Virus record (IMG/VR): IMGVR_UViG_3300003465_000003
Span: 1-64,000 of that record
DNA from: a virus
Strand: one strand, 5' to 3'
DNA: 64,000 bases
Shown: piece by piece, positions 2,957 through 54,275 of the stretch
Layout of the letters: every line of letters begins with the position of its first letter
Position numbering within the stretch: the first letter of the stretch is position 1
Translations under genes and position numbers: made by a program
The notes under the pieces: model-generated
What the model was told of the DNA's origin: nothing
The model's database searches: none
Seen by the model: only the letters and a program-made list of their open reading frames with translations

Positions 2957-3517
2957 ATGGCTAAATTAGGTCCGCCATTTGGTCGCATACCTTGGAACAA
3001 AGGATTAAAAGTAGGCGACAGAATTAGGAAAAATAAGCTTTACGCGGCGCGTAATTGCGTGTATTGTGACGCCGAGTTTTTCTGTTATCCATCCCAGAAT
3101 AAGCGTTACTGCTCACATAAGTGTAGAGCGCTTAAGACTAAGCCTTGGGAAAAGTTGCGTGGTAGAAAATTATCTACGCATCATAAAGAAAATTTGAGCA
3201 AAGCGCATATTGGTGTGCAATCTAAAGATAAACATCCGTTATGGAAGGGCGGACTCTATAAAACCGCTAGAGTAGAGGACATGGCCAACAACAATTACAA
3301 AAAGTGGCGTATAGCTGTGTTCAATAGAGACAATTTCACCTGTGTTGGTTGCGGACATGATAAATATGTGCAAGCGCATCACATCAAACCTTACGCTTCA
3401 CATCCAACACTGCGTTATACCGTAGAGAATGGGCAGACATTGTGTAAGCAGTGCCATTATATGCTGCATTTAGTAGCGGGGAATAAAAACACGGCAAGAG
3501 TAGAAATATGGCACTAA
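2957..3517 (+). CDS. HNH homing endonuclease with NUMOD3-like and Zn-finger motifs
   Basis: PWNKG; CxxC...YCSxxC; HKENLSKAH; RDNFTCxxC...HHIKP...NGQTLCxxCH. Confidence 0.9.
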   Translation: MAKLGPPFGRIPWNKGLKVGDRIRKNKLYAARNCVYCDAEFFCYPSQNKRYCSHKCRALKTKPWEKLRGRKLSTHHKENLSKAHIGVQSKDKHPLWKGGLYKTARVEDMANNNYKKWRIAVFNRDNFTCVGCGHDKYVQAHHIKPYASHPTLRYTVENGQTLCKQCHYMLHLVAGNKNTARVEIWH

Positions 3518-49338: not shown

Positions 49339-50184
49339 TCATGTTGTTGCACCTTCTGGAACTAGCCTACCGTTTTCTAACTTGTAACGTAGGTCCCTAG
49401 CCTTCCATTGCTGTAAATAAACATTGACCATCCAGCTTTCCACTTTTTCTGTATTAGGTTCGTCTGGAAGAGGAGAAGTTTCCAACAGATCCTTAAGTTC
49501 TTGATCAAGCTCCCCTGCTTTAGTGAGGCATTCCTGCAGTGTAGCTTTACCAGTCCTCACACCCAACAACCAACTACGTTCTGGTTCCTGCATTGGGCAA
49601 GACACTCTGCCAGTCTTCAATAGCTCTACACCCTGGAACCCAAGCCTAAGCATATGCATGGCATACTTAGTATCAAACCCATACTTTTCTACAAGCTCTG
49701 GCCTATTTATGTCCCGCTGCCCACGTTCGCCCAATAGTCTCTGCCGTTGTGCCTGACAATAACCAAGGAAAGCACGTCCAGCCTTCTTACTGATAATGTC
49801 TGGAGCCAGCTCCATTAGCCCAAAACCCAACGCATTAGACACCACAATTTTATCGCGCGGGGCAAACAATAGATTCAGGATTGTAGGATTACCACCTAAT
49901 GCCAGCCTGAGGTACTTCCTTAAACTATAGATAACGAGATCTAAATCCCCAGCACTGTTACGCGCATTATGTTTTTGTTCCCGTTCCGCCGCAGTCCGAT
50001 ACACAACCTGCTCAAACTGTGAGAGCCCAACCACATGCTGAATATCTTCTACACAGACTCCCATCTCATCACGGTCCTCCATCCCATCCTGCACATTTAA
50101 CCCGTGCAGTGTAGAACCTACGACCACTCTAAGAATTGTTGTCCGCTCCGCCATTTGTTGTAGATTTTGCATTTCCGTTCCCAA
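49339..50184 (-). CDS. Pol-beta-superfamily nucleotidyltransferase (YcgL/RlaP-like)
   Basis: VGS.LHGL....DRDEMG; GNP; G.DTKYAMH..RL. Confidence 0.85.
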   Translation of the reverse strand: MGTEMQNLQQMAERTTILRVVVGSTLHGLNVQDGMEDRDEMGVCVEDIQHVVGLSQFEQVVYRTAAEREQKHNARNSAGDLDLVIYSLRKYLRLALGGNPTILNLLFAPRDKIVVSNALGFGLMELAPDIISKKAGRAFLGYCQAQRQRLLGERGQRDINRPELVEKYGFDTKYAMHMLRLGFQGVELLKTGRVSCPMQEPERSWLLGVRTGKATLQECLTKAGELDQELKDLLETSPLPDEPNTEKVESWMVNVYLQQWKARDLRYKLENGRLVPEGATT

Positions 50185-50339
50185 GTCTTATATGACCATA
50201 CATGTCACATTTGTAGTCCCAACCGCCACAGACTGGACATATTCCAGCTCTGCGTTCTTTACATGAATGTCCCGGATGCCACATCAAACACTTCTTCCCT
50301 TGACAAACGCAACACCTACAGAATGGTTCCGGTATACAC

Positions 50340-50684
50340 TTACCACTCCAATTTGTAGAGTCCATCGGCATCTCTCCACTCTACATGCAACTCCCATTTA
50401 TCTATGAGCTTTTGGCACTCGGCACAGGGCCTAGACTTTATAATCTTTCCATTCCTGCGCCTGGCACTAGCCACGTAAATCGTAGCACCCAATAACCGCT
50501 TCTTGTTCGCTCGCTGAATGGCGTGGGCCTCGGCATGTATACCGTAGCCGGTAGGTCCCGGCCCATTCCACCCCCACGAGAATATTCCTTCTCCATCATC
50601 TATAGCAGCACCAACCTGAACGGCACACTGTGACCTACCCAATATGTCAGCCGCCAGTTGGTATCCGTCCATTGGTTTCTTCAT
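50340..50684 (-). CDS. cytidine/dCMP deaminase-like protein
   Basis: RS.C..QVGA; GWNG; HAE; PCAEC. Confidence 0.85.
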   Translation of the reverse strand: MKKPMDGYQLAADILGRSQCAVQVGAAIDDGEGIFSWGWNGPGPTGYGIHAEAHAIQRANKKRLLGATIYVASARRRNGKIIKSRPCAECQKLIDKWELHVEWRDADGLYKLEW

Positions 50685-50824
50685 CGTTGTTCCTTATGTT
50701 TCTTACTTGGCATTATTAATAATATCACGAATAAAACCATTAGAATCAGCAAAAACGTCATCCACTCTCCCGGCTCCGCCCCGCTCCGAGGCTTTATCAC
50801 TATATTTAATAAGACGTTATAATA

Positions 50825-51043
50825 TTATATTTTGGGCTCAGTAGTAGATCCTCTAAATCTGTTGGCCGTCTTCTTAAAGTAATTCATTGCTGAATGCAGA
50901 CCGGCAGATGCAGCCATCATCTCATGTCCAGCAAACATTGGGCACTCCTTGTTATTAGCAGCAGTTCGTATTTCAGTAATCAGCCCATTAATCCTGGCTA
51001 CATAACCCTCACAAATCGCTGCGACTTCCTTGTTATTAAACAT
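50825..51043 (-). CDS. hypothetical protein
   Basis: GGAG RBS; 72 aa. Confidence 0.5.
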   Translation of the reverse strand: MFNNKEVAAICEGYVARINGLITEIRTAANNKECPMFAGHEMMAASAGLHSAMNYFKKTANRFRGSTTEPKI

Positions 51044-51048
51044 TTGAT

Positions 51049-51327
51049 TTACTCCGCATCAAGATCCGGAATGGCATCGGCATCCAGTTCAACTTCATTC
51101 GCTACGCGCTCACGTTCTCTTCGCCTAGCAATATCCAATTGCACAATAGCCATTGACATCTCCGCGTTAACCCCAGAAGTAATAATAGTCATTACATTCC
51201 TAGGCGAAAACCCTCTATTAAACAAGGGTCTCAATAATCTGGCTACCTCACCAGCCATAGTTATACCGTTACCGTTATAATGTCCAGTTTCCGTAAACAG
51301 TGGTCTAAACATTGGACTCCCTTTCAA
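51049..51327 (-). CDS. hypothetical protein
   Basis: ORF in the operon; the later ATG (MFRPLF) is the probable start. Confidence 0.5.
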   Translation of the reverse strand: MKGSPMFRPLFTETGHYNGNGITMAGEVARLLRPLFNRGFSPRNVMTIITSGVNAEMSMAIVQLDIARRRERERVANEVELDADAIPDLDAE

Positions 51328-52267
51328 ACTGCGCCCGCAATAAGTAATCCTTATACCACTCTGCTACCCCACGTGTAATCTGTCTACTAATATGGGGCCA
51401 CGCATACTTAAACAGTACGTTCTTAATATCTTCCTCACACTCTTTAAGCACGTCCTGCGGGATCTCTCGCACCAATAATCCAATATCCTTCGGGTGGTCC
51501 TCAATTAATCCACGTTCCCGCAGATGCATGAGCGCTTTCTGCCAACGTGCTTGAGTCCCATACGCGTCTCCAAGCTTCTGGATAACATCTTTATTGCCTG
51601 GATTCGCATCCTTCCACGCGCTGCGATGAACCTCCTTAAACGCTTCACTTACGAACTTCCCGAACAACATCTTCTTGTCTGGTCCATAAAGTGGTGTCAG
51701 AGGCTTAATCACAACCCCTTCGATCTTCTGCCCTCCCAGTACGGACTCAGTATCCAGGAACTTCCTCAGTTCCTCGGCAGAGTTCACAGTCCCTTGATAG
51801 AGCTGAGGCACGACCTCAAGTTCTATACGCTCAGCTTCCGCTACAAGCTGGTCGTAGGGCAGATAGGTTTCCTGATCAGTCAAGATATCGAAGAGGATGA
51901 CGTTATCCTTTGGCACGCGGTCATAGGCCAGTGCATTATGCTTTGGTTTCGCTAGCACTTCTCCACGGTATTGCCAGCCTGGTTTCAGCAAATGCTGCCT
52001 AGCTTTAGCAGCAGCAACAGCAGATCTGAATAGCGCTTCAGGTGCATCTGCTATCATTACCGCACCCTTGCTGCGGACCTTAAGTTCATAGACTCCGGGA
52101 ACTTCCTTGAGCAGCCCACCCTCAGGTTCCAACAATGGGTACAGCCCAAACGCAAAGAAGCTCCCATCAACCTTCTCTTGTACCTGAACAGGGACGGTAA
52201 ACAATTCGCTAACCGCCCTGTGCCCAAGGTTGAAAATTGATTGAGGGCTGCAAAATGTAGTTGACAC
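51305..52267 (-). CDS. ATP-dependent RNA ligase (Rnl2-like)
   Basis: Motif I EKVDGS; YRGE; LFDI; EGVVIK; K.VS..FKE; GGAGG + GTG start at 52267. Confidence 0.8.
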   Translation of the reverse strand: MSTTFCSPQSIFNLGHRAVSELFTVPVQVQEKVDGSFFAFGLYPLLEPEGGLLKEVPGVYELKVRSKGAVMIADAPEALFRSAVAAAKARQHLLKPGWQYRGEVLAKPKHNALAYDRVPKDNVILFDILTDQETYLPYDQLVAEAERIELEVVPQLYQGTVNSAEELRKFLDTESVLGGQKIEGVVIKPLTPLYGPDKKMLFGKFVSEAFKEVHRSAWKDANPGNKDVIQKLGDAYGTQARWQKALMHLRERGLIEDHPKDIGLLVREIPQDVLKECEEDIKNVLFKYAWPHISRQITRGVAEWYKDYLLRAQFERESNV

Positions 52268-52290
52268 AAACCACCTCCCTGTGGTATAAT
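52261..52290 (+). promoter_or_regulatory. consensus sigma70 promoter of the antisense HNH gene
   Basis: TTGACA-18 nt-TATAAT with extended TG; ATG 8 nt downstream, no RBS. Confidence 0.8.
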
Positions 52291-52298
52291 GGGACATT

Positions 52299-52808
52299 AT
52301 GAAAACTAAGTACACTAAAGAACAACTGCAACCAATAATTGCAGACTCTGTATGTTGGAATGATGTATGTAGAAAGCTAAATCTCAGCCCCAATGGTGGG
52401 AGTATAAAAAGCTTTCTTCGCCGAATAGCTGACCATTTTTCTATATCCTACACTCACTTTTTAGGCAAAAGAAAGAATAAGTTATTGCGCACTACAGCAG
52501 TCCAAGCTCTTAGATGTAATTCAGGTTATAATCGTTCTACTATACGCAAAATAGTAGTGGAGGACGAACTGCTTCCATACAATTGTATTATATGTGGACA
52601 ACCCCCAATGTGGAATGGCAAGCCATTGACACTAATTCTAGACCACATAAATGGTAACTGTAGAGATCATGAGCTTAAAAACCTAAGGTTTGTGTGTCCA
52701 AATTGCGACACACAGTTACCAACTTATGCAGGTAAAAATTGTAAAGGTATCCCAAAGACGTTAACGACACCCAAGAAACCTAAAAGGGTAAACAAATTCC
52801 ACACGTAA
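52299..52808 (+). mobile_element. free-standing HNH homing endonuclease, antisense to the operon
   Basis: C..CG....WNGKPL.L.LDHING...D....NLR..CPNC. Confidence 0.9.
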
Positions 52809-52836
52809 TAATCTGTGGAGAATGCCATGAATTCAT
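52780..52836 (-). pseudogene. stranded 5' remnant of the RNA ligase gene
   Basis: AGGA RBS + MNSWHSPQI..., which repeats the SPQ(S)I of the ligase N-terminus across the HNH gene. Confidence 0.5.
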
Positions 52837-52845
52837 ATTTGTTTC

Positions 52846-53055
52846 CTAATCTGGCAAGGCCAAAACTTCTTTTATTGTAAGCAGCTTAATATTGCTACGA
52901 CGTGGTAACTGCGGAGTTGCCGCCTTGCCTGTTGTCATCTTTTCTATAACTCGTCGTAAAGACCCCTTAAGATCGTATACTTCGTAGTGTACGCCCATTA
53001 ATCCGCACAATTGTTCCACTTCATGAAATGGTGGACCCTCGGAATCCTTATTCAT
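52846..53055 (-). CDS. hypothetical protein
   Basis: GGAG RBS. Confidence 0.5.
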   Translation of the reverse strand: MNKDSEGPPFHEVEQLCGLMGVHYEVYDLKGSLRRVIEKMTTGKAATPQLPRRSNIKLLTIKEVLALPD

Positions 53056-53409
53056 TTTACTGCTCCAACTTTATCCGATTCGGTTTCCTGCGTTTGTCAT
53101 AACCCACGTAACTAATGATATACCCTGGTGCTTCGCTCGTAGGTTCTGCATAACTCCACACCTCAGCATTAGCTGCTTCTGGATGCGCCTGCTTAATCTT
53201 ACGCAGTAGTCGCAATAGTTCTTTCAATACCATTATAGTTCATCCACACTATATGTATCATAGTCCCGACCAGGGGTACTAATATTTGCAATTGCTTCGT
53301 CTAAGCGCTCCTGCCGATAATCAATATCTTCTAACTTACTTTCCAACCTTGCCAATGTTTCAATAATGAGGTTGAGCTTCTCAACCACTGTAGCTAGTTC
53401 GTCCTTCAT

Positions 53410-53733
53410 TTAATACCCCGACTTGTAATCGACTGCCTTATTCTTCATTGCTGTTGTTATTTCTACTGCGCCTCTTACGGATAGCCTAGTTGCGTAGTAG
53501 AAGTCGTTATAACTCATAATCTTTACTGTTTCGCCGCCCTCATAATTTACCTGCCTCAACGGATAATTAGCTCCTTTAATATGCAAAGTGGATGTGGTTG
53601 CCTTTAACCGACCGCGTACACTTCTAATCTCTACTTTGCCATCATTCAACATGATCGCAAAGTAACGCAGCTTTTTCTGAGCGGGGTTGTCAGTTTTCCG
53701 CTCAACATATTTATCCTTTACCAAGTAATGCAT
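53410..53733 (-). CDS. hypothetical protein
   Basis: AGGAG RBS. Confidence 0.6.
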   Translation of the reverse strand: MHYLVKDKYVERKTDNPAQKKLRYFAIMLNDGKVEIRSVRGRLKATTSTLHIKGANYPLRQVNYEGGETVKIMSYNDFYYATRLSVRGAVEITTAMKNKAVDYKSGY

Positions 53734-53741
53734 GGCTACTC

Positions 53742-54275
53742 CTACTTGCTTACTATCTGCCAGCTCACATCCACAGGGACAATAAAATCCTTCAAGAAAA
53801 GTTTAGTAGCCTGCAGCAACTTATTGGATACCTTATGCAAATGCTCTTCGCCAAAGGCACCAAAAACCCCAAACTTAACACCCTCAGGTTTGCTGATACC
53901 GACCAAACGTAGAAATGATAGGTTGGAAATAAGCTTCATTTCTGATAATCCCATGTCACTACGTACCTTACGTTGGATCTGTAGGTCAGAACCAGGATAA
54001 TCCAATGAATAATCGTAGCCTCGCACTCCAAGTGATTCACCACTTACCTTGTACATATGCAGAGGTCCATTGGACAATGGGTACCACCTGCTATCATATA
54101 GCGCTGGATCATCATTAGCTACGTCCCTACTTGCGTTGCGCATGAACTCTTCTACACTAGGGTCTGCCACAACATGCACGATACAACCCACGACATTCCG
54201 CAACGGACCCCGAATTGGACCCCTGCTTATCGACAATGAAACCCACTTGGTTGGTGTAATCTGCGTATCCATCAT
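53742..54275 (-). CDS. hypothetical protein
   Basis: AAGGA RBS; 177 aa. Confidence 0.65.
   Translation of the reverse strand: MMDTQITPTKWVSLSISRGPIRGPLRNVVGCIVHVVADPSVEEFMRNASRDVANDDPALYDSRWYPLSNGPLHMYKVSGESLGVRGYDYSLDYPGSDLQIQRKVRSDMGLSEMKLISNLSFLRLVGISKPEGVKFGVFGAFGEEHLHKVSNKLLQATKLFLKDFIVPVDVSWQIVSK

Follow-up and report, generated by a model that had tools for sequence, protein, structure and literature searches.

The RNA ligase gene of an uncultivated phage (IMG/VR record IMGVR_UViG_3300003465_000003) was most probably invaded after its eighth codon by a free-standing homing cassette, composed of an antisense HNH endonuclease gene read as a near-leaderless open reading frame (ORF), the promoter of that gene and a replacement 5' end for the ligase. 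The record has 99,793 bp and is rated complete by CheckV; the window analysed here is its first 64,000 nucleotides (64 kb), and coordinates are those of the window unless the genome is named. All genes near 52 kb lie on the minus strand, with the sole exception of a 169-codon plus-strand ORF at 52299-52808. A reading made from the sequence alone had described an antisense HNH gene, a stub of the ligase, a GTG start with its ribosome-binding site and a promoter in this region, and direct reading of the letters confirmed each of them in place. The features of the locus are the following.

51305..52267, minus strand: RNA ligase gene, 320 amino acids (aa), GTG start (PF09414, motif I EKVDGS, Rnl2-like fold)
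52241..52267, minus strand: replacement 5' end, ligase codons 1-9, V S T T F C S P Q (direct reading and homologue alignment)
52267..52265, minus strand: ligase start codon GTG, from which the gene reads V-S-T-T-F-C-S-P-Q-S-I-F-N-L-G-H
52279..52274, minus strand: ligase ribosome-binding site GGGAGG, 6 nucleotides (nt) before the GTG and within the spacer of the HNH promoter
52261-52290, plus strand: HNH promoter of consensus sigma-70 type, TTGACA, 18 nt, TGgTATAAT (12 of 12 positions match)
52299-52808, plus strand: HNH endonuclease gene, 169 aa, antisense to all its neighbours (PHROG match, motifs, tblastn)
52809-52812: junction of 4 nt, from the HNH stop codon to the last stub codon (direct reading)
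52780..52836, minus strand: stub ORF, ATG at 52836, 18 codons, TAG at 52782..52780
52843..52847, minus strand: original ligase ribosome-binding site AGGAA, 6 nt before the ATG of the stub and overlapping the stop of a 69-aa gene (52846..53055)

The stub begins with the native ligase codons 1-8 (MNSWHSPQ, 52836..52813) and continues with ten codons (IITCGICLPF), which are the antisense of the HNH C-terminus, before the TAG. Its first eight residues are identical to those of the closest ligase homologue, P0002, a protein 79% identical to the window ligase that is encoded on a 95.5-kb contig and begins MNSWHSPQGIFNLGH (MNSWHSPQ). A protein search returned 3307 ligase homologues, and the N-termini were compared in the best 120 of them. 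The motif W-[H..]-S-[P/Y] lies near the N-terminus in 110 of these 120, and the typical start is M-[SGN]-[SA]-W-H-S-P-Q-S-I-[F/Y]-N-L-G-H. The prediction of the sequence-only reading that HNH-free ligases would start with a MNSWHS-like peptide leading into SIFNLGH was thus borne out; the contrary outcome, uninterrupted homologues with a MSTTFC-like start, was searched for, and no STTFC-type start was present among the best 120 of the 3307 homologues. A query made of ligase residues 1-40 found no further STTFC-type allele.

Comparison with related loci located the limits of the insertion. In the metagenomic relatives L082 to L085 the canonical start runs unbroken into S-I-F-N-L-G-H, and the order of the flanking genes is conserved with the window. 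By tblastx, window 52836-52807 aligns with ligase codons 1-10 of L082 and L085. Against L082 and L083, codons 1-8 of the ligase are matched by the stub and codon 6 onward by the live gene (window 52249 downward); these two alignments overlap, so that S-P-Q is present twice. The uninterrupted relatives and the alignments therefore define the 572 bases at 52241-52812 as an insertion after codon 8. A relative of the HNH gene was absent from all 90 related ligase loci checked in IMG/VR and the metagenomes, and from the ORF starts of the 119 listed homologues. The IMG/VR scans with ligase alignments gave relatives that were all at most 58% identical, and the metagenome scan for the ligase gave 10 loci, with the HNH gene in none of either set. 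The IMG/VR scan with the single ligase protein gave zero matches, the scan of genome contigs with the ligase gave no match, and megablast found no match to the cassette region among GenBank phages. The HNH gene is thus polymorphic for presence and absence at a conserved site, as expected of a homing endonuclease gene.

One ligase homologue, P0039, has an atypical start (MTIHMSSHFSSPQ / MTIHMSSHFSSPQSIY) that may be a natural variant; its M-S-S would suit a TTGACA box on the opposite strand. P0039 and a homologue of the HNH protein, P0123 (61% identical), both have a longest contig of 5929 nt and, on the strength of that equal length, may belong to a second carrier allele.

The antisense gene matches the PHROG family phrog_10822, annotated as HNH endonuclease (2.9e-44), and by tblastn it is about 40% identical to annotated HNH endonucleases of Staphylococcus, Gordonia, Enterococcus and Felix-like phages. 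In an alignment of 14 sequences the residues C96, C99, D115, H116, N128, C133 and C136 are invariant and all are kept in the window protein, giving the HNH core of two CxxC zinc pairs that flank a DH...N catalytic motif. The gene is single-copy in the genome. Its guanine-plus-cytosine (GC) content, 38%, is below that of the genome (49%) and of the adjacent ligase (50%). With the HNH protein as query, the IMG/VR scan gave no close relatives; with an alignment as query the best match was 43% identical, and none adjoined a ligase. Full-length relatives in the genome-contig scan were also at most 43% identical, and short C-terminal matches reached up to 62%. Among 74 IMG/VR relatives of this gene, three are antisense to both neighbours and four have a promoter matching at least 10 of 12 positions; the design of the cassette is thus not typical of the HNH family.

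The HNH promoter is the sole perfect match to the consensus in the 64-kb window, where 0.04 would be expected by chance (at least one was found in 3 of 100 shuffled sequences). The ATG of the HNH gene lies 8 nt past the -10 box, so its mRNA would be near-leaderless. Promoter and ligase start occupy the same DNA on opposite strands: the GTG is the reverse complement of a CAC that begins with the final two bases of the -35 hexamer, replacement codons 1-3 are the reverse complement of the -35 box, and direct reading shows that the ligase ribosome-binding site is the promoter spacer in reverse. The bases of the new 5' end thus also form two parts of the HNH promoter, its -35 box and its A/T-rich upstream region.

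Transcription from this promoter would continue antisense into the upstream 69-aa gene (52846..53055, minus strand). Nothing more than a weak hairpin followed by a T-run lies 3' of the HNH stop codon, at about 52853-52880, and transcriptional interference with the upstream gene is possible.

We found the same layout twice more in the genome. The second cassette lies at a tRNA gene within the window and the third lies beyond it.

61102-61651: cassette 2 as a whole, an antisense HNH gene at tRNA-Leu
61187..61102, minus strand: target of cassette 2, an intact tRNA-Leu(CAA) by ARAGORN
61198..61226, plus strand: promoter of cassette 2, TTGACT, 17 nt, TGaTATAAT, with 9 nt to the ATG
61236-61625, plus strand: HNH gene of cassette 2, 129 aa, of another family (PF13392, phrog_14913)
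61626..61651, minus strand: stub of cassette 2, 26 nt that stem from another tRNA-Leu allele and directly adjoin the HNH stop codon
Genome 92873-93500, or in a longer span 92873-93713 (L172:2373-3214): cassette 3, after the portal gene, with a zinc-ribbon gene as target

The tRNA-Leu stub covers the 5' strand of the acceptor and the D-arm, and a 21-mer of it recurs in six other viral contigs, at nt 5-25 of their complete tRNA-Leu genes. The acceptor strand of the stub, GGGAAGT, is unable to pair with the 3' strand CCTCAGT of the live tRNA; therefore the live tRNA-Leu as a whole belongs to another allele, and this speaks for import from a diverged donor more than for a local duplication. In cassette 3 the stub consists of a ribosome-binding site and a GTG reading MKCSNCDKE, after which the frame dies. 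The antisense HNH gene has 175 aa and belongs to a third family (phrog_374, 2e-59), and its promoter, TTGACA-17-TGcTATTAT, falls within codons 1-17 of the regenerated gene, whose start is MEDNSIVCSKCQQKIF..WPFCPHG. Uninterrupted zinc-ribbon homologues begin M.C..C.KEL.I.DWPFCPHG, as the stub does; the zinc-ribbon target was not found in the five IMG/VR relatives searched.

The three cassettes have in common a native 5' stub, an antisense HNH gene, a near-leaderless promoter and a target that is complete but diverged. The stubs are 24, 26 and 27 nt long, and in all three 0-7 nt separate the stub's end from the HNH stop codon. The ligase stub matches the conserved N-terminus of its family and the layout recurs twice in the genome, so this arrangement is not due to chance. 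A scan of the 99.8-kb genome for near-consensus promoters with an ATG within 5-12 nt and an ORF of at least 60 codons returned exactly three genes, all of them these antisense HNH genes. Their promoters share a TGn-extended -10 box and a 'CATT ATG' 8-9 nt past it, so all three mRNAs would be near-leaderless. A promoter of this kind is absent from all ordinary genes of the phage, an indication that these are expressed from other signals. A fourth HNH gene (PF01844, 186 aa; window 2957-3517, plus strand) is sense, lies between structural genes and is without a consensus promoter. From the three cassettes we tentatively propose, as a serious possibility on which opinion could still fall either way, a type of homing that acts by start replacement: a compact antisense endonuclease with a near-leaderless host-type promoter would travel with a diverged 5' end, the promoter bases would double as the start or 5' coding sequence of the target, and three unrelated HNH families would have converged on this design in one phage.

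The origin of the new 5' end can be considered from its sequence. V-S-T-T-F-C-S-P-Q aligns with M-N-S-W-H-S-P-Q plus one extra residue, Trp being replaced by Phe and His by Cys, and at the DNA level the stub and the replacement are identical at 9 of 21 nt. The sequence-only reading had called the new end recoded. Its observation of differing SPQ codons (TCT CCA CAG in the stub, AGC CCT CAA in the live ligase) and of a replacement start was correct; recoding itself seems unlikely, as natural alleles carry similar variants (AGC CCA CAA in L083, TCG CCT CAA in L082) and the live AGC CCT CAA falls within this range, so the codons are not unusual. The new 5' end instead looks like a diverged homologous allele, neither arbitrary cassette DNA nor a designed recoding. 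P0002 is the best match for ligase residues 121-320 (80-88%) and other homologues match better over residues 42-120; as weak evidence, these segment identities would fit a co-conversion tract from a donor, with the 5' third of the gene foreign.

Throughout the family, mosaicism is seen in a hypervariable loop of the ligase, residues 42-62 (window about 52144-52082). The loop type of the window ligase, LLEPEGGLLKEVPGVYE, is found in the distant homologues P0004, P0012, P0020, P0061 and P0095 and not in the closest one, P0002, a distribution that points to recombination among ligase alleles.

Import from a donor has to be weighed against a local origin, in which the target's 5' end would have been duplicated over a short length, for example by staggered cuts or by endonuclease-driven tandem duplication, and the copy beside the promoter would have diverged in place, with nothing foreign imported and with divergence driven by selection for promoter function and against direct repeats. 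SegB-driven tandem duplication of a tRNA-plus-endonuclease unit via microhomology was shown experimentally in phage T6 (PMC13096335). Selection is also plausible, since the promoter takes its -35 box and upstream element from the new ligase codons and TGT CAA in the third cassette likewise serves as a -35 box, and the uniform stub length of 24-27 nt in all three cassettes would suit this explanation as well. However, the low identity between stub and new copy in the ligase (9 of 21 nt), the single ribosome-binding site that was not duplicated, the mosaic 5' third of the ligase relative to its closest relative and, above all in the tRNA case, the need for compensatory changes on both strands at all seven acceptor pairs make a local origin unlikely.

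The body of the live ligase is intact. It matches PF09414 (RNA_ligase) with 58.7 bits (cut-off 27; E 1.1e-15) and an RNA ligase PHROG (5e-27), and the motif I lysine is Lys32 in EKVDGS, a motif invariant among homologues. In an alignment of the window ligase with its 19 closest homologues, it keeps all the invariant residues, Lys32 included. The top Foldseek match of the predicted fold is T4 Rnl2 (2hvr, E 1.8e-7), with the Naegleria RNA ligase at 5e-6; the probability of these matches is 1.00, yet their template-modelling (TM) scores are just 0.35-0.40. In the AlphaFold model, residues 1-16 have a predicted local distance difference test (pLDDT) score below 50, and the model is therefore uninformative on the role of the N-terminus. 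A PDB sequence search returned a single TPR repeat match, which was judged spurious. The ligase heads a group of minus-strand genes at 49339-52267, with two small ORFs, a dCMP/cytidine-deaminase-like gene (PF00383) and a RlaP nucleotidyltransferase (PF10127, the 'RNA repair pathway' family). The deaminase-like gene and RlaP lie downstream on the strand of the ligase, which is therefore assigned to an RNA-repair cluster, and in the company of RlaP continued ligase function probably matters to the phage.

The insertion could on the other hand have killed the ligase, in which case the GTG and its ribosome-binding site would be fortuitous and the 320-codon frame would be a recent, undecayed pseudogene. 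This is improbable. The loss of the nearly invariant Trp-His pair of the family and the lack of a confident placement of residues 1-16 in the structure model would fit a pseudogene, but a GGGAGG at the ideal 6-nt spacing, an in-frame start and a peptide that realigns with the family (aromatic-x-S-P-Q) are together unlikely to arise by chance. In addition, the family-invariant residues are all retained, natural homologues tolerate Phe at the Trp position (a few have it, as in MSSFHTYPSIF and MNSFSSYSSIF), and the sister cassettes regenerate complete targets, including a tRNA that ARAGORN finds intact.

We consider it highly improbable that the HNH gene is no longer mobile, either as a domesticated nuclease or with an antisense promoter that mainly regulates the ligase operon by transcriptional interference. 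The promoter is indeed directed against the operon that contains the ligase, and the common promoter and near-leaderless design of the three HNH genes suggest coordinated early expression; but low GC content, a patchy occurrence, HNH genes from three unrelated families and leftover stubs typify a recent selfish insertion, and regulation would not require stubs.

The sequence-only reading had proposed an insertion without an intron, and the searches agree with it: no Rfam family, of introns or otherwise, was found at E<=1 on either strand of 51000-54000, and direct reading of the SPQ overlap showed ten in-register junctions, all without the exon U and insert G of group I ends. Introns of group I or group II were rejected on these two grounds and on the antisense ORF with its own promoter; moreover, the live ligase has its own ribosome-binding site and a complete N-terminus, so no splicing is required. 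Removal of the 572-nt insert at the RNA level by such an intron or other joining, to give MNSWHSPQ-SIFNLGH, therefore receives almost no credence from us, even though excision of exactly 52812..52241 would regain the canonical frame and intron-borne HNH genes are common in phages (for example in the CB7 table of PMC7344957), and the sister tRNA, complete without splicing, speaks against it too.

A homing cassette of this kind might operate as follows. Host RNA polymerase would transcribe the HNH gene early, and the enzyme would cut ligase alleles that lack the endonuclease, near codons 6-10; this stretch is highly conserved, as homing sites usually are. Break repair would copy the cassette, with the stub and the upstream gene as one homology arm and the body of the ligase as the other. 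The insertion splits the sequence coding for the conserved W-H-S-P-Q-S-I-F and would thereby split the recognition site, so carrier immunity would follow. The ligase would then be translated from the GTG at 52267, and its replacement 5' end, perhaps with the first ~120 codons, would derive by co-conversion from a donor allele that had diverged. Since the same bases serve the promoter and the initiation of the ligase, and the stub and the new start have almost no DNA identity, simple deletion could not restore the old gene, and loss of the cassette by this route would be unlikely. The sequence-only reading had likewise suggested that the new 5' end may be immune to cleavage, that it came with the cassette and that its overlap with the promoter would hamper loss. 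As to how a first cassette arose, one model is that an endonuclease located just upstream of a diverged orthologue cut about 25 nt inside naive genes and was joined irregularly on the stub side, which fits the foreign live copies.

Several points weigh against a mobile cassette with a functional, donor-derived ligase start. The nearly invariant Trp-His of the family is replaced by Phe-Cys in the window ligase, which could reduce ligase activity. The HNH protein has no Pfam match at E<=0.01; its scores fall below the Pfam cut-offs (PF13392, 15.8 bits against 24.8; PF01844, 14.8 against 21.4), several of its relatives carry PF13392 or PF01844, and its family assignment is based on PHROGs, motif conservation and tblastn. 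The apparent co-conversion tract is weak evidence, since mosaicism of the loop at residues 42-62 extends through the whole family. Both the mobility of the cassette and the donor origin of the 5' end we infer from architecture, and the origin model offers no explanation for an HNH stop codon 0-7 nt from the stub in all three cassettes.

Several known systems resemble the phage cassettes in part. The free-standing endonucleases of T4-like phages (SegF, SegG, MobE and others) are intergenic, sense and driven by phage middle or late promoters, and segD is the one antisense T4 case, without a promoter of its own (PMC2988022). The window HNH gene is like them a stand-alone gene that is missing in relatives and has lower GC, with a presumed cut of the endonuclease-free allele and spread by break repair with co-conversion. 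It differs in its position within the coding start of the target, its antisense orientation, its perfect host-type promoter, and the presence of a stub and a regenerated start.

The closest analogue of the phage cassettes is, by comparison of architecture, the mobile ORF element of fungal mitochondria, of which they are the 5' mirror image. These elements bring a foreign C-terminal segment together with an endonuclease ORF, and the displaced native C-terminus stays behind as a remnant resembling that of close relatives (PMC3630166; also PMC6279837); cases are known from atp6 of Allomyces macrogynus and from atp6, atp9, cox2 and nad3 of Glomus (PMC3630166). An endonuclease ORF, a diverged functional gene end and a displaced native remnant are all three present here, and the remnant is again nearer to relatives than the live copy is (MNSWHSPQ equals P0002, against STTFCSPQ; MKCSNCDKE fits M.C..C.KE). 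In fungal elements the 3' end is replaced by a sense ORF, often in frame, of the LAGLIDADG or GIY-YIG type, whereas in the phage it is the 5' end and the HNH gene is antisense with its own promoter; in addition, one phage target is a tRNA. Replacement of a 5' end means that new start signals are needed, and here they are supplied by the promoter region of the endonuclease.

In nrdA of Aeromonas phage Aeh1, as far as the case is cited in PMC7344957, the HNH gene mobE splits the gene without splicing, and both halves are translated and assemble. On that account the two cases are alike in an unspliced HNH gene inside a coding sequence with function thought to be retained; in the window, however, the first piece, of just 8 codons, is superseded by a new one instead of being used again. 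HNH genes encoded in group I introns (I-HmuI type) also interrupt a conserved phage gene at a conserved motif, but no intron RNA was detected here, the reading frame runs antisense from a promoter of its own, and it is in the DNA that the target is made whole again. Integrative elements carry a gene terminus in attP and regenerate the end of a tRNA or gene at insertion. They resemble the cassette in that the insert brings a replacement for the displaced gene end and the target stays functional, and they differ in their use of integrases and nearly identical ends, where we find a 0.5-kb cassette with diverged copies and no integrase. A limited check of the literature, which is not proof of absence, found no description in phages of 5'-end replacement by an endonuclease gene.

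To our knowledge, homing endonucleases have been thought to persist in genes only by means of introns or inteins, or else to lie between genes. The ligase locus and its two sisters would represent a third route, in which the 5' end is replaced at the DNA level and bases are common to the promoter of the endonuclease and the start of the target. They also indicate a trap for annotation, as the ligase passes for an ordinary gene with an odd N-terminus and the stubs are overlooked. If start replacement is confirmed, such an endonuclease could invade the very start of essential or useful genes, tRNAs included, without an intron; it would be hard-wired to the expression of its target, and the 24-27 nt stub would mark the point of cleavage or insertion, with predicted cleavage sites about 25 nt into three different targets. 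The cassettes would thus offer a concrete, testable example of how selfish nucleases may remodel gene starts and drive local mosaicism in phage genomes.

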